From a virus (taxonomy: Duplodnaviria; Heunggongvirae; Uroviricota; Caudoviricetes): DNA of 64,000 nt. The notes below the pieces were generated by a model, which saw only the letters and a program-made list of their open reading frames with translations, did not search any database and had not been told where the DNA came from. Shown here in pieces: positions 2,873-39,732 of this stretch. The position numbers and the translations under genes are program-made. The stretch spans positions 1 through 64,000 of IMG/VR virus record IMGVR_UViG_3300008267_000017. One strand, written 5' to 3'. Each line of letters begins with the position of its first letter. The stretch's first letter is position 1.

Positions 2873-3165
2873 TTAATCTCCAATAGTCTAGAATTGTTAC
2901 GATAGTATTCTGCTGTCCACTCTTTAGGAATCTCCTCACCAGCTTCCATATAACGTGTCACAGCTTCTTGTATTTCTTTCTGACGATGTTCTAGCACGAT
3001 AAACTCAGGTCGAAGTCCGATAGTGGGCTTTGCAGTTGCTGAAAGTGCAATCTTCCAAACTGGCAAATCTGTTGAAGAGAAATCTTTTCCGTTAAACCAA
3101 TGATTCTTATCCCGCACTCGCATATCAATCCTCCTTAAATAAATTAATACCGACCACACTATCAT
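2869..3165 (-). CDS. hypothetical protein
   Basis: ATGA overlap with the upstream ORF. Confidence 0.45.
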   Translation of the reverse strand: MIVWSVLIYLRRIDMRVRDKNHWFNGKDFSSTDLPVWKIALSATAKPTIGLRPEFIVLEHRQKEIQEAVTRYMEAGEEIPKEWTAEYYRNNSRLLEIK

Positions 3166-6356: not shown

Positions 6357-6878
6357 TCATGTAACACCTCCATTCTTAGCACAGTGTAATTGGTAAACAC
6401 AACGAGCATAACTGTCAGCTTCTGTCTTGTCAAGACGCTCTTCGACAAAAACTGGTAGAAACAGAGAAGCAATCTTATTATCTCGCTTAGAAATAATGTC
6501 ATTAGCTTTCACTGTAACATAAATACTATAGTCTTGTATAGTCTCTGGAGAATACATTTCCCACCAAGCTTTACGTTGATCATCCGAGAATCCTGTACCT
6601 ACGTCTGATACGAGCAACCTATCTCTAGAAGCCACTGTCAAGCTACCCATCATACCTTTATATTTGTTCGTACCTTCTGTTATACCAATCACTTCCAAAT
6701 CTACTTCAAACTCGATTTTAAGTTTTAAACAGTCTTTTGATGTCCCTGAAGACCACTTAAAATCCTTAGTTTTAATTACACACCCCTCAGAACCGTTGGA
6801 AGTATATTCTGAATAGATTGAATAAGCTTCTTCTAGTGACTCTACTTTGTATGTCTTTACCATTTTAATATTTTTCAT
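6357..6878 (-). CDS. ATP-dependent DNA ligase, C-terminal segment (motifs IV and V, OB domain), translated as a separate ORF with its own RBS
   Basis: EGCVIK (motif IV) and LKLK (motif V). GGAG RBS 8 nt upstream of its ATG, lying inside the 3' end of the HNH gene. Confidence 0.8.
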   Translation of the reverse strand: MKNIKMVKTYKVESLEEAYSIYSEYTSNGSEGCVIKTKDFKWSSGTSKDCLKLKIEFEVDLEVIGITEGTNKYKGMMGSLTVASRDRLLVSDVGTGFSDDQRKAWWEMYSPETIQDYSIYVTVKANDIISKRDNKIASLFLPVFVEERLDKTEADSYARCVYQLHCAKNGGVT

Positions 6879-6881
6879 ATT

Positions 6882-7439
6882 TTATTCTCCGTGTGTCTCA
6901 GTATACCCATAACCTAATAAATTTAACTTTTTAATTTGATTCTGCCTACACTCAATAGCAAGCCGCATTGCTTCATCTTTTCCGTATTTTATAACAGAAA
7001 ATGATTTTTGTCTCATTCTCTTATCCGTGTCATACCAAAAAGCAATATAAGCAGGAAATCTTGAATTTCTAAAATAAACCCCTGTAGTCCCTGTTGAATT
7101 ATTTGGATGCTTACTCCTGTTTCTAGCATTGTTTTCAGCCTTAACAGCTCTTATATTCTCTATTTTATTATCAGTCTTATCCCTGTTAATATGGTCTATT
7201 ACATAACCTTCCCACATGTCTTTGTTGAACATTTCATAAATTATTCTGTGTACTAGATATGTTTTACTTTTTAATTTGACATTATAGTATCCGTGAGAAC
7301 TTTGAGAAACCACTGGGTCTCCTTTATTCACTAAAACTCTTTTATAATATTCACCTGTAAATACACTGACTTGCCACCTCAAACAGCTAGGACTTGTCTC
7401 ATCATAATAAAACCAATCGTGCCAGTTAATTTCACTCAT
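6882..7439 (-). CDS. HNH homing endonuclease with AP2 DNA-binding domain, inserted between the two halves of the DNA ligase gene
   Basis: HNH core VIDHINRDKTDNKIENIRAVKAENNARN. AP2 domain GVYFRNSRFPAYIAFWYDTDKRMRQKSFSVIKYGKDEAMRLA. Its ATG lies 2 nt after the ligase-N stop, and its stop lies 3 nt before the ligase-C ATG. Confidence 0.85.
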   Translation of the reverse strand: MSEINWHDWFYYDETSPSCLRWQVSVFTGEYYKRVLVNKGDPVVSQSSHGYYNVKLKSKTYLVHRIIYEMFNKDMWEGYVIDHINRDKTDNKIENIRAVKAENNARNRSKHPNNSTGTTGVYFRNSRFPAYIAFWYDTDKRMRQKSFSVIKYGKDEAMRLAIECRQNQIKKLNLLGYGYTETHGE

Positions 7440-8280
7440 CTTTTAAAATCCTTTTCAGTGTCTCCAATCTCTCTGTATAAGGCACACTTGATTTACCAGC
7501 TTTAAATTCTGCCACTGTCAAACAATCCCAAGCTGTCAACTCAAATGCGAGATTATCCCCTACTTCCCCACCCTTAAGAACACTATTCAAAATACCATTT
7601 CCTGTCTTTCGGTCTAAAGGAACACCTAATGTAGCAGCTTCTCCATACACTAATAATTCTCCCACCACTACAAACCCTTCAGGAAGTCCTACAGCAAGCT
7701 TTTCAGCGAATTCTGGAGGATACTTGCTACCAGCTCGTGTAATCGCTTCAGGAGCCTTTCCCGCCTCTTTAACAAGGTAGCAGAAACTACCATCAAGCTT
7801 CTCTTGTACGAAGAATGACTTGAGCTTACTAAAACGCTCTTTTACTTTAACATCCATTAGTGAGCATCTTTGGTAAGGTGGAATAAAATACAAATCAGGA
7901 AACACTTTCAAAATCATTGTGTCACCTACACCAGCTCCGATAGAGCGTTTGATGAGAAGTTCTAGAAGCTCTTGACCTTGTTTGTTTAAGTGCTTATACT
8001 GATAAGTCAACCAAGTCTCTGCTTCTTTTCCAGTTACTTTACGATCTGCTAAATACCACACAACATTAGACAATATTTTAAAGTTTATATCGTGCTCTGT
8101 GTCATATTGATCTGTAACTTTAGTAATTTTTGTTTGATAATAACTAATAGCAGGGTCATACACTGCCTTCAAATAAGCCTTCAACAGCTCATTGTCCTTA
8201 TTAGCTTCCAAAATAGCTGTCTTAGCATTTGAGCCAGAAGCATTCTGCAGTTCTTTAATAATTGTATATAAATTACTCAT
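7432..8280 (-). CDS. ATP-dependent DNA ligase, N-terminal adenylation segment (motifs I, III, IIIa)
   Basis: KLDGSF (motif I KxDG) and VVGELLVYGE (motif III). Start refined to MSNLY, which has AAGAGGAG 7 nt upstream. Confidence 0.8.
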   Translation of the reverse strand: MSNLYTIIKELQNASGSNAKTAILEANKDNELLKAYLKAVYDPAISYYQTKITKVTDQYDTEHDINFKILSNVVWYLADRKVTGKEAETWLTYQYKHLNKQGQELLELLIKRSIGAGVGDTMILKVFPDLYFIPPYQRCSLMDVKVKERFSKLKSFFVQEKLDGSFCYLVKEAGKAPEAITRAGSKYPPEFAEKLAVGLPEGFVVVGELLVYGEAATLGVPLDRKTGNGILNSVLKGGEVGDNLAFELTAWDCLTVAEFKAGKSSVPYTERLETLKRILKDE

Positions 8281-8455
8281 TAACATTCTCCTCTTGATTA
8301 TCACGACCCTCATTATGCAACTGACTAGCAGCAACCTCTCGTAATACATTTAATGAATTATACATCTCTGCAGGAGTGTAGTGTTCTATATCTCTGACAA
8401 TTGCTTCTAGTTTCTTCTTGAAATAGTGAGCATCCAGTCCGTACCTGTTGTTCAT
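8273..8455 (-). CDS. hypothetical protein
   Basis: Small ORF whose stop overlaps the ligase start. Confidence 0.35.
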   Translation of the reverse strand: MNNRYGLDAHYFKKKLEAIVRDIEHYTPAEMYNSLNVLREVAASQLHNEGRDNQEENVNE

Positions 8456-15538: not shown

Positions 15539-15727
15539 TTAGGTTCATAAGTAATTTGCTAGGCTCAATTCTAGGCATATTATCAGAGTATGTCAAGAAG
15601 TTTGCATCTGATTCTTTATAATTATTGAAAAGTATCATTTCCATAGCATAAGACTTTCCGTAATGAGTGCCTCCTCCGACAATTAGAACTCTCTTATCAT
15701 CTTTTACGTAGAGTTCTTCCTTCATAC
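15525..15727 (-). CDS. hypothetical protein (start refined to MKEEL, ATGA-coupled to the recombinase stop)
   Basis: GGGTHYGKS is P-loop-like but short. Confidence 0.35.
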
Positions 15728-16372
15728 ACTCCCTTTCATAGAAATTTGCTTCTGCAACTGGTTCCATTTCGCTTCTAATTGCTTGAAAGCCTCTGCACAA
15801 GAATATTGCTTCTTGTACGTGCTTACACTTTTCTCAGATACACCATGTCGGTGAGCCACATTCATACGAGAAACACCAGCTTGCAAGTCTGCTAGGATAG
15901 CTTTGATTTTGTCTGGGGAGTTTGTTTGTCTTTTGCCAAGTATCACCCCTTCAGCTTTGCGTCTAGCTAATCCCGATATTACACGCTTCTTGATACTTTT
16001 GAGTTCATTAGCTGCCAACACAGCATGAATGTCAAACTCAATTTTATCATCCTCTCCTTGCAGAACTTTACCAATTTGAAGGATGTTAATCTTCACTCCA
16101 CGTTTGAGAAGTGTTTCAGCAATCGAGATAGTATTACCAGAGCCACGACCCCAACGGTCTACACGAGTGCTGTAAATGGTTGTGTCAGAGTCTACTTCCT
16201 CAATCATACGAGAGAACCCTGCACGTTCATACACACTCTTTGCACCACTAATTCCGTGGTCGATGTAGTAGGCATCGAATTTACCACCGATAAATTCTTC
16301 AAGCTCAAAAATTTGATTTTCTGGGCATTGATCTGTGCGCGAAACACGAGCATAAAGTACACGTTTTGACAT
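15722..16372 (-). CDS. small serine recombinase (resolvase/invertase family) with C-terminal HTH
   Basis: RVLYARVSRTDQ holds the catalytic Ser. VDRWGRGSGNTISIAETLLKRGVKINIL resembles the resolvase DRLGRS block. C-terminal HTH VSRMNVAHRHGVSEKSVSTYKK. Confidence 0.85.
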   Translation of the reverse strand: MSKRVLYARVSRTDQCPENQIFELEEFIGGKFDAYYIDHGISGAKSVYERAGFSRMIEEVDSDTTIYSTRVDRWGRGSGNTISIAETLLKRGVKINILQIGKVLQGEDDKIEFDIHAVLAANELKSIKKRVISGLARRKAEGVILGKRQTNSPDKIKAILADLQAGVSRMNVAHRHGVSEKSVSTYKKQYSCAEAFKQLEAKWNQLQKQISMKGSV

Positions 16373-18520: not shown

Positions 18521-18549
18521 TTGACATACAAAATTAGATGAGATATTAT
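18521..18549 (+). promoter_or_regulatory. sigma70-like promoter TTGACA-17-TATTAT for the plus-strand gene block starting at 18584
   Basis: -35 at 18521-18526, -10 at 18544-18549. The downstream gene has an AAGGAGA RBS. Confidence 0.5.
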
Positions 18550-23372: not shown

Positions 23373-23609
23373 ATGCTATTTAAAAACTATATAGAAGTAG
23401 ATTGTGAAACATGGGTAGAATTCTTAACAGAGTTTAGAACATACCAAACTGAAGTTATAAACGATGTTTATACAGACATGCAAAGCAAAATTATGCATAA
23501 TGAAAACCCACGTAATAACGGCTTAGTCGTGGCTTATGTTCGTTATCATAAGGACGGTACAAAACAGTATTTTATTACAGCAGCTTTTACAGCAGAGGGG
23601 AATGTATAA
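23373..23609 (+). CDS. hypothetical protein
   Basis: AGGGGATAAA RBS. Confidence 0.45.
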   Translation: MLFKNYIEVDCETWVEFLTEFRTYQTEVINDVYTDMQSKIMHNENPRNNGLVVAYVRYHKDGTKQYFITAAFTAEGNV

Positions 23610-23764
23610 TGCAAACGAACTTTTCAACAATCAAAATTATTCGTACTAGTACGAATAAGCCCAAGCAAGAAGCAAGCGAGAAGCACGTCAAAACGGCTTA
23701 CAAGGGCAAGAAATGGGTACGTGGCACAGATAAGCGTTCTATGAATTTTGACAGCTTAAAGGGG
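23609..23764 (+). CDS. small basic protein (51 aa)
   Basis: ATG overlaps the previous stop (TAATG). Confidence 0.3.
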
Positions 23765-23772
23765 GGTTTAAA

Positions 23773-23925
23773 ATGACTTTATACGATATTGATTGTGAGA
23801 TTGAACGGTTAGAAAATGAGATAGATAATATATGCTTCTCTGAGCATGAGGATTTTCTTTCATACACTGATAAAATGCTTCAGTTGATACAGTTAAAAGA
23901 AGAAAGAAACAACAAAGTGAAGTAA
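23773..23925 (+). CDS. small acidic protein (50 aa)
   Basis: GGGGGG RBS upstream. Confidence 0.3.
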   Translation: MTLYDIDCEIERLENEIDNICFSEHEDFLSYTDKMLQLIQLKEERNNKVK

Positions 23926-23928
23926 CGC

Positions 23929-23958
23929 TTGACAGCATAAAATAGATTCTGTTATAGT
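23929..23958 (+). promoter_or_regulatory. sigma70-like promoter TTGACAG-17/18-TATAGT followed by GCAGTCAT
   Basis: Shares the TTGACAG...TATAGTNCAGTCAT architecture with 22101-22129. Confidence 0.45.
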
Positions 23959-24274
23959 GCAGTCATTCTCTTATTTAAAGCTACTAACTTAACAGGGTTT
24001 ATTATGTCATACGCTATACCATATAAGGGCATTACAAGGTTTTTCGACAGTGAAGAGCAAGCAATAATTTTCTGTAAGCTTGCTATGCTTTCTCAATCAG
24101 TTATTATTAAGGCGCAATTGCGATAAGGGGCTATTATGTTTGAGCGTGATATGTTGGACAATATGGAAGCTATTAGTAAGGCGAAAAGACAGTGGGCAGC
24201 ACATTGCAAGCATGTTGCCATGTGTCAGCGTATGGATAGCATGTAAGAACATCTTTAGGCAGTAGTAGTCTTAT

Positions 24275-24300
24275 AAGCCCCTTGACGGGGCTTTTCTTTA
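24275..24300 (+). terminator. rho-independent terminator (AAGCCCC UUGAC GGGGCUU UUCUUU)
   Basis: 7-bp GC stem followed by a T-tract. Ends the plus-strand block. Confidence 0.65.
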
Positions 24301-24346
24301 TGTGACGTGGCATAGTTGCGAGTAGGCTATAGTGCCATTAGTATAC

Positions 24347-24388
24347 TTATCCACAGATTATCATTAGTTATCCACAGAGTTATCCACA
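24347..24388 (+). promoter_or_regulatory. cluster of three perfect consensus DnaA boxes (TTATCCACA) in direct orientation
   Basis: Boxes at 24347-24355, 24368-24376 and 24380-24388. Located in a 900-bp ORF-free region between convergent transcription units, with AT-rich stretches and palindromes nearby. Confidence 0.6.
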
Positions 24389-25200
24389 GGCTGAGGGGTT
24401 TATTGCAACTTTGACAGTATAGCAACAGAGAACTAGACCAAACGGTCTACAACATACATACAGCCATGTATGTATAACGCATTAACAACTACACAACACA
24501 TGCACCATTCGAGTGCATAACATAGCGAAATGCTATCTATTACCAGTCGTCATACCTGTTCCCTTTCTATACCCTAACCAAGCTAACTATCTTAGCACGT
24601 CACACAATACCGATTGCAAGCCAATAGAAGCACTCACAAGGCACGTTCTATAACTGTCCTATGTCTTACTGTGCTCAATGATTTAAACGTCTCTAATCGC
24701 TTCTATTGCGACACCTAAACAGGTATTTGCTTCACTTACAGGGCGATTCGGTACATATTTCAGGGAAGCAAGGACTGTGCCAGCTCACACCTTCACCCCT
24801 GTTAAACAACGATTGCGCCTCCCACCATTTTCTAGTATCACTTGATAAAACTCACAAAATATATTTCCAAAAACTGAGAAATACTCTCCTAACAAATAGG
24901 TCACTTCTGAAAAATTTTTGGATGAAATTTGACGTTCAAAACACTTTTTGCAGATATTTTCCTGTATAAAATTACAACAAGTGTGTCTTAAAACAACATA
25001 TAAAATTAAATTTTTAAATTTTAGCGTTTAAGGAACTTTATCAGGGAATATGAATATAGATATTGCAGCCTTTTAATATCGAATAAGGAAGCAACAAATG
25101 ATGGGATTTAGCCGTGGAAAAGCTCTCGAAACAATAAACTGATAGTTGAGTACCAGAATACTATTTGAGAGCTTTTTAGGTGCGATTTTATAACGAGAAG

Positions 25201-25812
25201 TTAGTCTGTAATTTCAACTGTGAAGTTATTTAAAGCTTCGATTACTTTAGGATGTATCATTCCTTCATACTTTATTGCGAGTTCTTTAGCAAGAGCTTCC
25301 TTGTAAACTTTGTAAGCTTGGAAGGCTTCTTCTGGAGTGTCGTAGAATCCTAGATGTTTACTGCAGCTTCTGCCATCACTTGCAGTTGCTCTGTACATCC
25401 CCTTCAATTTGTAGAAGTCTACACCTATTGGATGGCTGCCTCTGTCTCCTTTCCTTTTTGTCAAGAAAGTATTAACTTGCCTTGGAATAAAGAAGCTTGT
25501 ATCCTCTGAGTAAAGTTTATTTCCTTTGAGCACAACGTCCTTGTCCAATTGATAATCTTTTAACTTAAATCCTATCTGAGACTGACACCACTCTGCGAAA
25601 TATTGAAAGTTCTTAAAATTATCAGAAGCTTCGCAACCTATATAACTAGGATACCTTACATGGAGTTTCGCAGAGTAACACCTCTCCAGCATATTTTGCC
25701 ATAAGATGTATTCTTTCGTACGTTTTCTACCGATACTTCTAAGATGTTTCCCTTTTTCAGAAACTCCGACTCCTTGCACTAACCTCTTACCCATTCTTAT
25801 TCCTCTCCTCAA
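25201..25812 (-). CDS. homing-endonuclease-like protein, paralog B (degenerate HNH-like plus AP2-like, ends ...VEITD)
   Basis: QLDKDVVLKGNKLYS and C-terminal RGSHPIGVDF...GFYDTPEEAFQAYKVYKEALAKELA. Paralog of 3499-4065 and 38758-39732. Confidence 0.6.
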   Translation of the reverse strand: MRRGIRMGKRLVQGVGVSEKGKHLRSIGRKRTKEYILWQNMLERCYSAKLHVRYPSYIGCEASDNFKNFQYFAEWCQSQIGFKLKDYQLDKDVVLKGNKLYSEDTSFFIPRQVNTFLTKRKGDRGSHPIGVDFYKLKGMYRATASDGRSCSKHLGFYDTPEEAFQAYKVYKEALAKELAIKYEGMIHPKVIEALNNFTVEITD

Positions 25813-26338
25813 TAATTTGTTTCAACTTCTCCCACACAATAGGGGTATAGTCAATATTTTCCATAGATACACAATAATACCTGTCATCCACTTCTCGACT
25901 GCCTTGCATAACATCATTGTATACTCCCACTTCTTTGCTATGTAAGTGACCATGTATGTTCATTTTATACCTAGGAATAACACTAGCAGGATGCAAAGGG
26001 ATATGACTCATAACGTAGTCATCAAATACTTTCACTCCATGCAACTTCTTGAAGTACACTAAGTATTCCTCAGCTCTCATTGTGTCGTGATTGCCCATTA
26101 CCAATTCTTTTGTGCCATTCAGTCTAGCAGCTAGTGGCAAAGCACTACGATTGATAACGAAGTCTCCTAGCACAATTACAGTGTCTTTAGGCCGTACAAC
26201 ACTGTTCCAATTAGCTATTAAAGCTTCGTTCATTTCTTCTACATCTGTCCAAGGACGTTCTTTCTCTCCATTAGGACGAAGGAAGTTTACAATCCCTCTG
26301 TGTCCTAAGTGCATATCAGCACAAACGAATGTGGTCAT
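25787..26338 (-). CDS. calcineurin-like metallophosphoesterase
   Basis: Motifs CADMHLGH (DxH), VLGDF (GD), MGNHD (GNHD), and IHGHLH. Confidence 0.8.
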   Translation of the reverse strand: MTTFVCADMHLGHRGIVNFLRPNGEKERPWTDVEEMNEALIANWNSVVRPKDTVIVLGDFVINRSALPLAARLNGTKELVMGNHDTMRAEEYLVYFKKLHGVKVFDDYVMSHIPLHPASVIPRYKMNIHGHLHSKEVGVYNDVMQGSREVDDRYYCVSMENIDYTPIVWEKLKQIIEERNKNG

Positions 26339-35812: not shown

Positions 35813-36553
35813 TTAGTACCCTGATTTATCAAACGCAATAATCAAATCTTTACAAGTCTTGCTACGCACAATATGTTCATAGGAATCAAAATCAATACGT
35901 GCAACAGATTCTTTTAACCGAGGGTTTTTATCAATGATTTGTGAGAAAATAGCAAGACCGCTCTCTTTATTTAGTGCAGATTGTGCAACGTCCCCGCAAA
36001 GAATCATTTTACAGCCTCCTCCACGAGTGATGATAGATTTAATCTCAGAAATTTTACAGTCTTGGACTTCGTCCGCTATAACCCATGTACCTCTTCCATA
36101 ACTCATCCCTTTGATTGTCTCTAAAGGCTGTAGTTGAATATTACCATCTGCAATTGCTTCATCAACTACATCTTTACCCATGCGTTGATACAACACAGAT
36201 AACATTGGCATAATCCAGTTCTTCACTTTCATGTCCTTATCACCACCAAAGTAACCAAGACTCTTAGAGTCTGACACAGAGGGTCTAGTAAGTACAATCT
36301 TATTACAAACCCCTGTTCGCCATGCGTCTGCAGCCATACAAGTTGCAATAAATGTCTTCGAGGAACCTGCGAAACCTGTTGCGACAATCAAATCATAGTC
36401 TTTGATAGCTTTGAAGTATTCGGCTTGCCGTTCGTTCATCGGAACAATTGGTTTACTTTCAATTTCAAGTTTACGCTGCTCCAAGAATTTCTCTTTGATT
36501 ACAGGTGCAGTTTCAGGGGATTTTTTAGTTTTTTTGCTAATTACGCGAGCCAT
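35813..36553 (-). CDS. phoH: PhoH-family ATPase
   Basis: Walker A GFAGSSKT (PhoH GPAGTGKT), Walker B VIADEVQD, and C-terminal GDVAQ. Confidence 0.8.
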   Translation of the reverse strand: MARVISKKTKKSPETAPVIKEKFLEQRKLEIESKPIVPMNERQAEYFKAIKDYDLIVATGFAGSSKTFIATCMAADAWRTGVCNKIVLTRPSVSDSKSLGYFGGDKDMKVKNWIMPMLSVLYQRMGKDVVDEAIADGNIQLQPLETIKGMSYGRGTWVIADEVQDCKISEIKSIITRGGGCKMILCGDVAQSALNKESGLAIFSQIIDKNPRLKESVARIDFDSYEHIVRSKTCKDLIIAFDKSGY

Positions 36554-36617
36554 GTAGATACCTCCACATTAAAGTTAAACTGCCAAGCACTTGATACATA
36601 CTTGGCTATGCTACAAA

Positions 36618-36935
36618 TTATTTGTTAAAATTACTAAGAACTTGTTTCTCTAACAACTTCTCTAAAGTTGTTCCAGATTCAATTGCCAATTCTGTAAATG
36701 CTTTATACACATCTTTAGGAATTCGCACAGTTACTGGAAACAGTGTTTCAGGTTGTTTATATTCCACTCCACTACCAATTAAGTCAAAGTTTTCTGCAAA
36801 CACTGTGTAGTTGTCTGCCTTTGTCCGAATACTATCTCCTGTGACATCATTAAAATCGCTTCTACTTTTACCAAAATTTCCATTAGTCGTTGTCACTCCA
36901 CATACCTCCTTCTCTGTTAACTTTGTTGTTTTCAA
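36618..36935 (-). CDS. hypothetical protein
   Basis: ORF. Confidence 0.4.
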   Translation of the reverse strand: MKTTKLTEKEVCGVTTTNGNFGKSRSDFNDVTGDSIRTKADNYTVFAENFDLIGSGVEYKQPETLFPVTVRIPKDVYKAFTELAIESGTTLEKLLEKQVLSNFNK

Positions 36936-37068
36936 TCTTCAGAATAAGATTCCCATCTTCATCTGTCCATTCTACCAAGATACCACCTTGTTTGCATGAC
37001 TCTATTACATCATATAAGTCAGCTTCTAGTAATTGTTTATTTTTCTTGCCCATTTGGTTTACGTCCAC
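36883..37068 (-). CDS. hypothetical small protein
   Basis: ORF overlapping its neighbours. Confidence 0.3.
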   Translation of the reverse strand: MDVNQMGKKNKQLLEADLYDVIESCKQGGILVEWTDEDGNLILKIENNKVNREGGMWSDND

Positions 37069-37261
37069 GAGGTTTTGGAGCTTCTGTTAGCTCTTCTTGT
37101 TGTTCTTGTACAGCTCCACGAATTAATACAGCGTTATATTGCTGGTCAATCCAAGGGTATTCAGAAGCTTCCTCTGAGATGACAAAGCCTTCTTTAAATT
37201 TAGCTTGCAGCTCTAGTGCAAATTGTCCAACTGAGCTTTCACGGATTGTGATTTTTTCCAT
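37037..37261 (-). CDS. hypothetical protein (first gene of the leftward unit)
   Basis: ORF. A promoter lies upstream. Confidence 0.4.
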   Translation of the reverse strand: MEKITIRESSVGQFALELQAKFKEGFVISEEASEYPWIDQQYNAVLIRGAVQEQQEELTEAPKPRGRKPNGQEK

Positions 37262-37391
37262 TGTGTTTCCTTTATGTTATGTTAGTCTTCTAAATCTTCT
37301 TCAAGCATGTGCTCTATGAAGTCGTTTACATCTAAGTATTCCAGTTCTGTGTATTCTTCCAATTTATTCTCCTTAGTTATCCAGAAATTAA

Positions 37392-37420
37392 ACTATAGCA
37401 TTCAATCAGCCAAATTGCAA
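37392..37420 (-). promoter_or_regulatory. sigma70-like promoter TTGCAA-17-TATAGT, leftward
   Basis: Reverse complement of 37415-37420 (-35) and 37392-37397 (-10). Confidence 0.45.
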
Positions 37421-37475
37421 GAGTTTCTTTCAGGTAACTATTAGTTGTCATTAACAACTATTTACAGCGAGGGAC

Positions 37476-37504
37476 TTGACAAACTGACAGTTATGGTTTA
37501 TACT
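37476..37504 (+). promoter_or_regulatory. sigma70-like promoter TTGACA-17-TATACT, rightward into the structural module
   Basis: -35 at 37476-37481, -10 at 37499-37504. Confidence 0.45.
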
Positions 37505-37534
37505 TCACATTATAAGTAAATCAGCAGGAGATAT

Positions 37535-37909
37535 ATGAGTGACGTAGATAACAGTGTAGGAGAGATAGTAAGGACAGGAGTTCAGAGTAAGAAGAACTCT
37601 ATCACTATTCAAAAGCGATTGCTAAATAAGGAAAATAAACCTTCCATGGCTTACTTGGTATCAGTGAGAGATGACCCTACAGCAAGCAGAAAAGATAGGA
37701 TGGAAGCAGCGAAGTTTCTCATGACTATGCACATGGAGTCTATTAAAGTTGAGTCTGCTGAGAAAGCTCGGAATAAGGAGTTTGCTGCGAAGCATCATGA
37801 ATTGCTTTTAAGTATTCAACGTAATGGTGGTATTATTGTTGATGATAGTGATGAAGATGATGAAAGTCAACCACTCTTAGATTTTGAGAATATTGCAGAA
37901 GTTGACTGA
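37535..37909 (+). CDS. hypothetical protein, possible terminase small subunit
   Basis: First gene of the packaging module. 124 aa with an acidic C-terminus. No motif support. Confidence 0.3.
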   Translation: MSDVDNSVGEIVRTGVQSKKNSITIQKRLLNKENKPSMAYLVSVRDDPTASRKDRMEAAKFLMTMHMESIKVESAEKARNKEFAAKHHELLLSIQRNGGIIVDDSDEDDESQPLLDFENIAEVD

Positions 37910-38101
37910 TTGTAAAGAATATAGCTTACTTGTAAGAAGGAAAGTGTACTTAATCGGGTTAGACCAGTTTTACTCCTCCCGAAGAACGGACTTCTCGGCA
38001 ACACCTCCGTCTTTGTATAGTGCTATTTAATATGGTGTGCAGCCACCGTGTATGTCAGATTGAGAAGCAACTCTGACAATAAAGATAAACTTCTCGCCAA
38101 T

Positions 38102-38176
38102 GCATCCTTAGCTCAATGGTGGAGCGAGTGCCTTCCAAGCACAAGGTCGAGAGATCGGTACTCTCAGGATGCTCCA
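38102..38176 (+). tRNA. tRNA-Gly (anticodon UCC) with a non-canonical T-loop
   Basis: 7-bp acceptor stem with G1:C72 and C2:G71, discriminator U and encoded CCA. D-arm GCUC/GAGC. Anticodon loop CUUCCAA is identical to E. coli tRNA-Gly(UCC). T-stem GAGAG/CUCUC with loop AUCGGUA instead of UUCGAAU. Confidence 0.55.
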
Positions 38177-38351
38177 TTAGAATATTAAAACGACAATCCT
38201 CCACTGAGTCTCCTCCGTGTCCTCCTCCTTCACGGTTCTCCTATCAGTGTTGTAGGGTTGTCCTTTTAGTGTTTTAACAGTAGTGGTGAGAGGAGAAGAT
38301 ATGTTCTCCCGAGATAGCAGCAAGGTTAGTGTGGTGTGCTATCATTATGTG

Positions 38352-38380
38352 TTGACAGGGCTGTGTTATTACGTTACAAT
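38352..38380 (+). promoter_or_regulatory. sigma70-like promoter TTGACAGGG-17-TACAAT
   Basis: -35 at 38352-38357, -10 at 38375-38380. Confidence 0.45.
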
Positions 38381-38422
38381 TCTGTTTCACTATATTTTAG
38401 TAACAACCAAAAGGAGAAAATA

Positions 38423-38608
38423 ATGGAATTTGTAAACTTTCCAACATGTGTAGGTGATGGATGCATACATTGTAAAGGTGTGACTGACAACTTCATTCGT
38501 CAGGCTAGAGAGGTTCACGGAGATAAGTATGACTATAGCTTGACTAAGATTAGTTGTGCAGATGTTCAGATTCCTAAGCATGTTTTAGAAGTTATGCTTG
38601 CACAGTAA
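38423..38608 (+). CDS. Cys-rich small protein (start refined to MEFVNF)
   Basis: AAAAGGAGAAAATAATG RBS. CVGDGCIHCKG. Confidence 0.45.
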   Translation: MEFVNFPTCVGDGCIHCKGVTDNFIRQAREVHGDKYDYSLTKISCADVQIPKHVLEVMLAQ

Positions 38609-38757
38609 TTAGATTTAACAGGGAGGACAATATGAGTTCTCCCTTAGTTGTACGTTGTGAGTTTTATTATGTCAGGGCATTAGAGAGGAAACCCTCACAA
38701 GAATCTTTAGTGCTTCTGACATAATAGAGTTTATTAACAGCTTGTGAGGAGCAAAAT

Positions 38758-39732
38758 ATGGAAAAGAAAAGAGTACATTCAAATAAGCCGCAAATTAGTG
38801 TTGGAGATGTTTTCAAGACGAATTGTTATGGAGATGTGGAAGTAATTGAATACCTTAACGCGAATAAAATCAAGGTGAAGTTCATAGTTGACGGATACCA
38901 GAGATACACAACATCTGGTAATTTGCAAAAGGGTAAAGTGAAGAATCCCACTATACCAACTATTGAACATGCAGGAAGAGCATCGAAGAATGTTTGTATT
39001 GGTGGAATCTATAAGAACACAAATGGATTGCAATTCAAAGTAGTTGAATACACAGATGCAAAGAATGTTAAAGTGGAGTTTGAGTCTGGTTATATTACAA
39101 ACTGTTCTCTTCAACGAGTTCGTGACGGAGGAATATCTGATAACTTCTCTCCATCCAGATTTCAAGGGTATTTAGGTACTTTAGTAGGTGTTGAAGTTAA
39201 AAACGTGGCAAAGACTAAGGAGCATATTCACTGGTCAAGTATGTTAGCAAGATGTTTCTGTGAGGAATACCAAGATAAGTATCCGACTTATAAAGGTACA
39301 ACTATCTGTGAAGAGTGGTTAAATTTTACAGTTTTTGCTAAATGGTGTAGAGAACAGCCTGAGTTTTTGTTGGGACATAGAGTTTTTCTGGATAAGGATA
39401 TTCTAAATAAAGGAAACAAGCACTATAGTCCAAATACATGTACTTTTGTCCCTCACGCTGTTAATACTTTGTTTACTAAAGCGGATGCAAGCAGAGGTAA
39501 GTATCCTATAGGGGTGTCTTATTGCACAACTCGAAATACAATAACTGCCTGTGTCCGCATTGATAAGCGAACTAAATACTTGGGCAGGTTTGCAAATGCC
39601 ACTGATGCATTCTACGCATACAAGAAAGCAAAAGAGGTTTATATTAAAGAACTTGCTGAGAAATTTAAAACAGTTATTTCAAACGAGTGTTACTTAGCAA
39701 TGTACAGGTATGAGGTTGAAATAACAGATTAG
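38758..39732 (+). CDS. homing-endonuclease-like protein, paralog C (N-terminal extension, degenerate HNH-like, AP2-like, ends ...VEITD), immediately upstream of the terminase gene
   Basis: FLDKDILNKGNKHYS and C-terminal RGKYPIGVSY...LGRFANATDAFYAYKKAKEVYIKELA. GAGGAGCAAAATATG RBS. Confidence 0.6.
   Translation: MEKKRVHSNKPQISVGDVFKTNCYGDVEVIEYLNANKIKVKFIVDGYQRYTTSGNLQKGKVKNPTIPTIEHAGRASKNVCIGGIYKNTNGLQFKVVEYTDAKNVKVEFESGYITNCSLQRVRDGGISDNFSPSRFQGYLGTLVGVEVKNVAKTKEHIHWSSMLARCFCEEYQDKYPTYKGTTICEEWLNFTVFAKWCREQPEFLLGHRVFLDKDILNKGNKHYSPNTCTFVPHAVNTLFTKADASRGKYPIGVSYCTTRNTITACVRIDKRTKYLGRFANATDAFYAYKKAKEVYIKELAEKFKTVISNECYLAMYRYEVEITD

Follow-up and report, generated by a model that had tools for sequence, protein, structure and literature searches.

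Three tandem DnaA boxes form a probable portable, invertible module beside a conserved non-coding zone in a distant relative of phage Felix O1

We analysed 64,000 nucleotides of a caudoviral genome (positions 1 to 64,000 of IMG/VR record IMGVR_UViG_3300008267_000017; this whole stretch is called the window here), that of a lytic myovirus and distant relative of Felix O1, and concentrated on a short array of DnaA boxes lying in a gene-free gap near 24.3 kb. This array, the cassette, is very likely a portable module bound by host DnaA, as judged from its exact match to the consensus and its recurrent layout. The gap that holds it is a convergent junction, at which + strand genes stop at 24246 and − strand genes stop at 25201. 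A sequence-only reading of the same DNA had described a zone free of open reading frames (ORFs) between convergent units, and this was borne out: 24250-25200 contains just two mechanical ORFs, with GTG or TTG starts, and no credible one, and no genes are called in the equivalent zones of relatives. The features at the junction are as follows.

24136..24246, + strand: last small ORF of the + early-gene block (36 amino acids, AAGGGG upstream), the block running from ~18.5 kb; from sequence and translation
24275..24299, + strand: intrinsic terminator of the early-gene block, a 7-bp GC-rich stem plus TTTTCTTT; a homologous hairpin lies at the same place in relatives
24345..24389, + strand: DnaA-box cassette, three 12-nt units A[C/G]TTATCCACAG in one orientation; from sequence, with the layout inverted at the same slot in two relatives (L132, L136)
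24396..24426, no strand: most conserved edge motif, GGGGTTTATTGCAACTTTGACAGTATAGCAAC (consensus GGTCTAATCGCAACCTTTACAGnATAGCAAC; the GCAAC motif below); from alignments, 7-27 bp from the cassette in 3/3 carriers
24434..24519, − strand: two terminator-like hairpins (24449-24434, 24519-24499) and a palindrome (24454-24475); lineage-specific, not conserved
24593..24812, no strand: conserved non-coding core (...TTGCAAGCCAATAGA...CACGTTCTA...CCGTTAAAC...); ~85% identity to relatives over 24603-24650
24824..25063, no strand: AT-rich low-stability stretch, 76-79% A+T; includes a conserved A/T-tract motif at ~24897-24935
25118..25176, no strand: inverted repeat with 13-bp arms, possibly a terminator, where the − strand unit has its 3' end; from a repeat search
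25201..26338, − strand: end of the − strand unit, with an HNH endonuclease (25201-25812) and a phosphoesterase (25787-26338), the latter the anchor for relatives

The terminator that had been noticed just before the boxes is present (AAGCCCC-TTGAC-GGGGCTT plus a T-run, 48 bp upstream of box 1), and so is the AT-rich tract, which ranks second among the least stable 100-200 bp stretches in the window; the palindromes are likewise real, at 24454-24475 (perfect, with 9-bp arms at 24454-24462 and 24467-24475) and at 24499-24519, a few bases off the positions first quoted. We rejected the possibility that the zone is a structured RNA: no Rfam match was found in 23500-25800, RNAalifold on a seven-sequence alignment of the zone gave essentially no consensus structure on either strand, and the window's nested inverted repeats are not conserved. 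No function for the zone is assigned in the literature that we searched.

The cassette carries three copies of TTATCCACA, all on the + strand (24347-24355, 24368-24376 and 24380-24388), exactly as the sequence-only reading had reported; no further perfect copy occurs on either strand of the window, where ~0.8 copies would be expected. Perfect nine-mers are indeed rare by chance, and the probability of three same-strand boxes within 42 bp is ~2e-8 given the base composition and assuming independent positions, an assumption weakened by the 12-nt repeat unit to which each box belongs; the exact match to the DnaA consensus is unaffected by this. The relaxed consensus TTWTNCACA is not enriched in the rest of the window (8 observed vs. 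10.8 expected), so that the signal is this one cluster. The repeat units start 21 and 12 bp apart, leaving gaps of 12 and 3 bp between boxes (boxes 2 and 3 being separated by GAG), and the three 12-mer copies may share ancestry through local duplication.

The nine-mer is the highest-affinity, R1/R4-type box (PMC5835720). A tblastn search with DnaA domain IV gave no match in the window; as the phage has no such homologue, the binding partner must be host DnaA. That host DnaA would bind the cassette we hold with confidence, because the boxes match the consensus exactly and because their layout recurs elsewhere. Two candidate promoters were considered here and are regarded as by-products: a weak 9/12 sigma-70-like match inside the boxes on the − strand (TGGATA-18-GATAAT), and TATAGT at 24328, which is isolated and by eye has no −35 element.

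Relatives were sought with the phosphoesterase as anchor, which yielded nine independent metagenomic loci at 75-91% protein identity. With the window these make a near clade of 10 independent zones, and a wider set adds Pseudomonas phage vB_PsaM_M1 and Erwinia phage Fifi318, for 11 relatives in total. In all nine metagenomic relatives 1.0-1.5 kb at the same place is without called genes. The corresponding convergent junction of vB_PsaM_M1 holds a gap of 870 bp, and the syntenic junction of Fifi318, a Felix O1-like phage proper, one of 1.4 kb; that is, the ~1-kb zone is syntenic in 11/11 relatives examined. Within the near clade it can be aligned over its full length, the conserved blocks being the terminator, the GGTCTAATCGCAACCTTTACAGnATAGCAAC motif, the core at 24593-24812 and the A/T-tract motif. 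This conserved non-coding zone of 0.9-1.5 kb may be of greater importance than the DnaA boxes themselves. An exact-pattern scan of IMG/VR for its conserved core gave no match, and phosphoesterase scans of IMG/VR and JGI metagenomes gave distant loci only, none with a comparable zone.

Zones of this kind lie at L122 16473-17340, L128 15290-16371, L129 12742-13700, L134 9782-10967, L138 3199-4406, L261 5002-6209, L266 7404-8919, L268 2466-3757, L140 15767-17175 and window 24250-25200. Of these, L140 is the Fifi318 zone (record 75766-77174), where TGTTAA[G/C]A occurs ~24-32 times and CTTCTAA ~9-13 times, mostly in separate halves, a pattern suggestive of an array bound by a phage protein. At the right edge, an HNH gene of ~346 amino acids abuts the zone in several relatives (L129 11702-12742, L134 8733-9782, L136 9908-10945); the window's HNH gene (25201-25812, − strand) is shorter, at 203 amino acids, and possibly truncated, and HNH presence does not track the cassette.

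DnaA boxes occur in 3 of the 10 near-clade zones, those of the window, L132 and L136. Each of the latter two has three perfect boxes and no more, again spaced 21+12; these occupy the corresponding slot, with the terminator on one side and the GCAAC motif on the other, and in both the whole cassette is inverted relative to the window, with recognisably conserved flanks (TAGTA[T/C]AC / TGAGG...TAAT.GCAAC). Between carriers the 11-nt spacers agree at only 5/11 positions, while all nine-mers are perfect. In every carrier 7-27 bp separate the cassette from the GCAAC motif, while the distance to the terminator ranges from 47 to ~150 bp, and the sequence of the slot between terminator and motif is wholly different among relatives. 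On this comparison the cassette reads as an insert at the zone's edge that is optional and can be inverted. The window also encodes a serine recombinase/DNA invertase homologue (phrog_125, 15722-16372, − strand), found here in a lytic Felix O1-like phage. Hin/Gin-type inversion needs segments far longer than 45 bp, and this enzyme was set aside as the agent of the cassette's inversion since the segment is too short.

An insert in so variable a slot might have no function, being a recently acquired or locally duplicated fragment that drifts there until it decays. Consistent with this, the contents of the slot differ fully among relatives, L134 has an apparent decayed remnant (AGTGGACTATC) at the cassette's place, and on a phosphoesterase tree (one short gene, and so indicative) the three carriers are not sisters, each grouping with box-free phages. 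However, the nine-mers are all perfect in three diverged phages whose spacers and flanks have themselves diverged, the 21+12 spacing has been kept through inversion, and many unrelated phages share this layout. These three observations point to purifying selection on DnaA binding, and we consider lack of function very unlikely.

The layout does indeed recur widely. The 22-mer box pair TTATCCACAGAGTTATCCACAG was found in at least 120 IMG/VR contigs representing at least 87 unrelated flank contexts, at GC contents of 27-73%, and the 21+12 triplet with unrelated spacers in contigs L003/L018, L016, L070 and L106. Box pairs occupy every gene context among the viral contexts, convergent junctions accounting for 9/87, and in some contigs the same 22-mer adjoins iterons. 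In nine contexts (L005, L037, L039, L043, L070, L071, L080, L089, L121) the pair lies inside an ORF of 247-354 amino acids; a domain scan of eight such ORFs gave Phage_rep_O for one, HTH_36 for four and DnaA_N for one, identifying the box pairs in these ORFs as origins embedded in initiator genes. The complementary strand of the pair encodes VDNSVD[N/K] in initiator-like ORFs (LSTELST if the pair is on the coding strand), where the same bases appear to double as DnaA boxes and as a protein linker. Among bacteria, box-N12-box-N3-box in one orientation occurs at at least 120 loci, in so many phyla that it gives no clue to the host of the phage; DnaA is encoded within 8 kb at 71/120 of those listed, which have a median of 12 perfect boxes, and these 71 are thus dnaA/oriC regions.

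Among named phages, a 50-bp cassette query recovered similar clusters in 564 records, from T5-like phages (in the left terminal repeat), T7-like phages (positions 60-150), Lactococcus 949-like phages, microviruses and others. Shigella phage VB_Ship_A7 (Berlinvirus; L270 1-150) has ~ten DnaA-box-like nine-mers at its left genome end, among them TTATCCACA, TTACCCACA and TTATCCATA, mostly paired 2-3 bp apart. PMBT69, a 128-kb lytic Lactococcus phage, has seven perfect boxes at a convergent junction (L001 2440-3225, record ~12.1-12.9 kb), where the tiny 'hypothetical protein' coding sequences annotated over the boxes are probably spurious.

The junctions in PMBT69 and in the window raise the possibility of a roadblock or insulator, at which bound DnaA would stop read-through RNA polymerase, preventing antisense transcription or head-on collision or keeping the zone free of transcription. 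Schaefer and Messer (EMBO J, 1989) reportedly found that DnaA/box complexes can terminate transcription in an orientation-dependent way. The window's cassette sits precisely where the + terminator (24275-24299) faces the − strand terminator-like hairpins (24434-24519), the similar cluster of PMBT69 (boxes at 3005, 3024 and 3036, plus four more) is also at a convergent junction, in an unrelated large lytic phage, and at such a junction either box orientation would serve. Yet intrinsic terminators already stand on both sides, most relatives do without boxes, and viral box pairs are not mainly at convergent junctions (9/87), making this a quite improbable account.

The arrays at or near genome ends suggest another role, in DNA entry as proposed for T5: membrane-associated DnaA would grab the boxes, pausing or anchoring the entering genome after its first segment. 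Boxes 2 and 3 of the window are, like the paired boxes of T5, 3 bp apart in an untranslated palindrome-rich zone, and similar arrays lie at 1-150 of Berlinvirus A7, in other T7-like genomes and in T5-like terminal repeats. The model for T5 is, however, no more than a proposal. Felix O1-like phages have short terminal repeats (PMC11984208, PMC6454146), and by analogy with Fifi318 the terminus would be near 38.2-38.7 kb, ~13 kb from the zone; moreover, the cassette is not within large inverted repeats and is absent from most relatives. We judge this role highly improbable.

Our preferred explanation, which is tentative, is that the cassette is a portable DnaA-binding module acting as an auxiliary handle for the adjacent conserved cis-element, possibly a replication start region. 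The three same-direction boxes, 21 and 12 bp apart, would load three DnaA protomers head-to-tail as at oriC, same-direction boxes being known to support head-to-tail DnaA assembly (PMC6868365). The slot that houses them is hypervariable and probably untranscribed, between the early-unit terminator and the conserved ~1-kb zone, and from there the handle would bring DnaA, and hence the membrane or DnaA's DNA-bending and melting activity, to the zone's cis-element, plausibly the start region of phage replication. It would in this respect resemble the accessory boxes that border plasmid origins (P1 oriR, RK2 oriV) and are required in some hosts only. A local cis role is weakly favoured because the cassette is near the most conserved motif, because the zone is conserved and because the second least stable stretch lies inside the zone. 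More tentatively still, we would couple the cassette to that zone and give it a part in replication.

Several observations weigh against such a part. The other seven near-clade zones have no box even at one mismatch, save two isolated copies of TTATCAACA, and the zones of vB_PsaM_M1 and Fifi318 have none; because most close relatives lack boxes, the cassette is probably not the phage's essential origin. An oriC-type origin would be expected to have clustered boxes, as is the case here (three perfect within 42 bp), but also to keep them among close relatives sharing the locus (here 3/10 zones) and to have an unwinding element beside them, whereas the flanks are ~40-45% GC and no AT-rich stretch comes closer than 435 bp. 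No DnaA-trios (three or more in-phase [T/A]A[G/A]) were found on either strand of 24250-25200, and no GATC in the same interval, although with ~0.8 expected there and 51 in the whole window this is not significant. As for iteron-type origins with accessory boxes, the boxes do border the conserved zone, at 7-27 bp in 3/3 carriers, but we found no repeat family besides the boxes (mismatch-tolerant k-mers did not exceed shuffled controls, with Fifi318 as a positive control that scored positive) and no initiator gene with a Phage_rep_O or HTH_36 domain near the zone. The phage has its own polymerase and primase-helicase and thus no obvious need for DnaA, and in T5, the best studied of the lytic phages with paired boxes, the boxes are away from mapped origins (10.1101/866236).

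GC skew, which the sequence-only reading had put forward as a check, gave no help. It changes sign at ~24.5 kb, as it does at ~17.5 and ~37.5 kb, but each of these is a gene-orientation switch; because the 24.5 kb inflection coincides with such a switch it carries no independent information on replication, and skew was rejected as origin evidence. The suggestion that host DnaA is recruited here for replication initiation therefore divides: recruitment is upheld by the consensus boxes, the recurrent layout and the lack of a phage DnaA domain IV homologue, and initiation at the cassette is disfavoured by the missing adjacent unwinding element, trios, iterons and initiator gene and by the 7/10 box-free zones. 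On sequence grounds, the cassette as a replication origin proper is not supported. Titration of DnaA and regulation that depends on it, the other roles named in the sequence-only reading, are still conceivable.

The same patchiness fits about equally well with a pure DnaA sink, which would have no local cis-function: hundreds of genome copies, each with three high-affinity boxes, would soak up DnaA, block host initiation and derepress nrdAB, guaBA and dnaA, raising deoxynucleoside triphosphate levels. Consensus R1/R4 boxes are the best titrators, and multicopy plasmids with few boxes do titrate DnaA in vivo and delay initiation, each origin being matched by ~200 DnaA monomers (PMC5835720); nrdAB is repressed when DnaA-ATP is high, and gua is likewise under repression by DnaA (PMC8203912). 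The patchy distribution, the indifference to orientation and the untranscribed 'safe' slot in a tightly packed genome are what one would expect of a context-free element, and these the sink explains about as well as the auxiliary handle does; in addition, the 64 kb examined showed no gene for ribonucleotide reductase. On the other hand, we found no precedent in the literature for a DNA-based DnaA sink in a phage, a sink would not require the constant closeness to the GCAAC motif, datA-like sinks use more sites together with an essential IHF site, and promote hydrolysis of DnaA-ATP, where the cassette has three boxes only, and the benefit for a fast lytic phage is unproven. We therefore regard a pure sink as credible but unlikely.

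A broader possibility, which we also think rather doubtful, is a widespread 'DnaA handle' of tandem boxes at fixed 21+12 (or 12) bp spacing, which would be acquired, inverted and lost in the non-coding slots of unrelated lytic phages (Felix O1-like, T5-like, T7-like Berlinviruses and Lactococcus 949-like phages) and would serve host takeover, through a membrane-DnaA tether or through titration that halts host initiation and derepresses deoxynucleoside triphosphate synthesis, and not as an origin. For the role of DnaA boxes in lytic phages with their own replisome there has been one proposal only, for T5. If the sink or tether reading were true, the cassette would represent a new class of host-takeover element made of DNA alone, without protein. 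The near clade offers a natural experiment on these questions, as it shares the zone with the cassette present, absent or inverted.

The genomic setting is that of a tailed phage with its genes in long blocks: − strand from 1 to 17.5 kb, + strand small early genes at 18.5-24.25 kb with strong sigma-70-like promoters at 18521, 22101 and 23929, − strand from 25.2 to 36.5 kb, and + strand late genes from 38.7 kb. The closest named relative is vB_PsaM_M1 (Ounavirinae), at 63.7% major-capsid identity, followed by Felix O1-like Erwinia and Salmonella phages at ~31%. Megablast of the window DNA against phage genomes gave no match, and the sole match at E<=1e-5 in sensitive blastn against the phage collection was the box cluster of PMBT69. 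Genes recognised include portal, major head proteins, primase-helicase, HNH endonucleases, phosphoesterase, family-A-type DNA polymerase, ligase, thymidylate synthase, serine recombinase and one tRNA; the neighbours of the zone encode HNH, phosphoesterase, GDSL lipase and small proteins of no assigned function. The DNA ligase is split in two ORFs (7432-8349 and 6357-6878) with an HNH endonuclease gene (6882-7439) between them, and the DNA polymerase likewise lies in two adjacent ORFs (1395-1910 and 103-1389); both have the look of interruptions of homing-endonuclease or intron type. Ahead of the late genes, the divergent junction is occupied by a second ORF-poor region, of ~2.2 kb (36553-38758), which holds tRNA-Gly (38102-38176). 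The physical genome ends, with short direct terminal repeats, are probably within this region near 38.2-38.7 kb, a placement that takes the PhageTerm-derived start of Fifi318 as its model.

On plasmids and temperate phages, DnaA boxes are among the textbook components of origins, and plasmid accessory boxes (RK2, P1) tolerate changes of position and orientation, their requirement being host-dependent. With P1 oriR, F oriS, RK2 oriV and lambda-O-type origins the window shares tandem consensus boxes at the edge of a cis-region with an AT-rich stretch, but it has neither iterons nor a Rep or other initiator gene nearby. The box-N12-box-N3-box arrangement in one orientation is identical in bacterial oriC/dnaA arrays (Thermus, Meiothermus, Deinococcus, Competibacteraceae); those loci, however, have an unwinding element and, in the median, 9-12 perfect boxes, where the window has three boxes and neither an adjacent unwinding element nor a DnaA-trio. 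The compact three-box cluster also recalls the DnaA-reactivating sequences (DARS) DARS1, DARS2 and ColE1 DARS, the DARS core being three DnaA boxes within ~70 bp, found on the mobile element ColE1 as well (PMC5835720). DARS needs boxes I and II opposed and 5 bp apart (PMC6868365), and as a DARS the cassette was rejected, since its three boxes share the + strand and are separated by 12 and 3 bp.

Among lytic phages, the untranslated injection-stop (iss) region of the T5-like group contains eight boxes, set as pairs with 3 bp between the members (Davison 2020, 10.1101/866236). The likeness to the window is considerable: a lytic phage with its own replisome, consensus boxes 3 bp apart and an untranslated palindrome-rich region downstream of early genes, and the function of the T5 boxes is as unproven as that of the cassette. 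The T5 boxes differ in their placement, within the long terminal repeat on four inverted-repeat arms, and in being kept in 25/25 T5-like phages compared, whereas the window has three same-direction boxes, shared by 3/10 near relatives (itself included) and probably outside the terminal repeat; no large inverted repeat with IRC/IRD-type arms was found enclosing the cassette. The Lactococcus 949-like phages (PMBT69, phiL47, AM4) are likewise large and lytic, and at a convergent junction they carry a triplet at 19+12 bp spacing as well as additional boxes, but they are unrelated, have a Gram-positive host and spread seven boxes over ~800 bp. The cassette is in these terms a further case of a known phenomenon, DnaA-box clusters on phage DNA, as in lambda-type origins, P1 and the T5 iss; what is unusual here is the natural series of presence, absence and inversion among close relatives.

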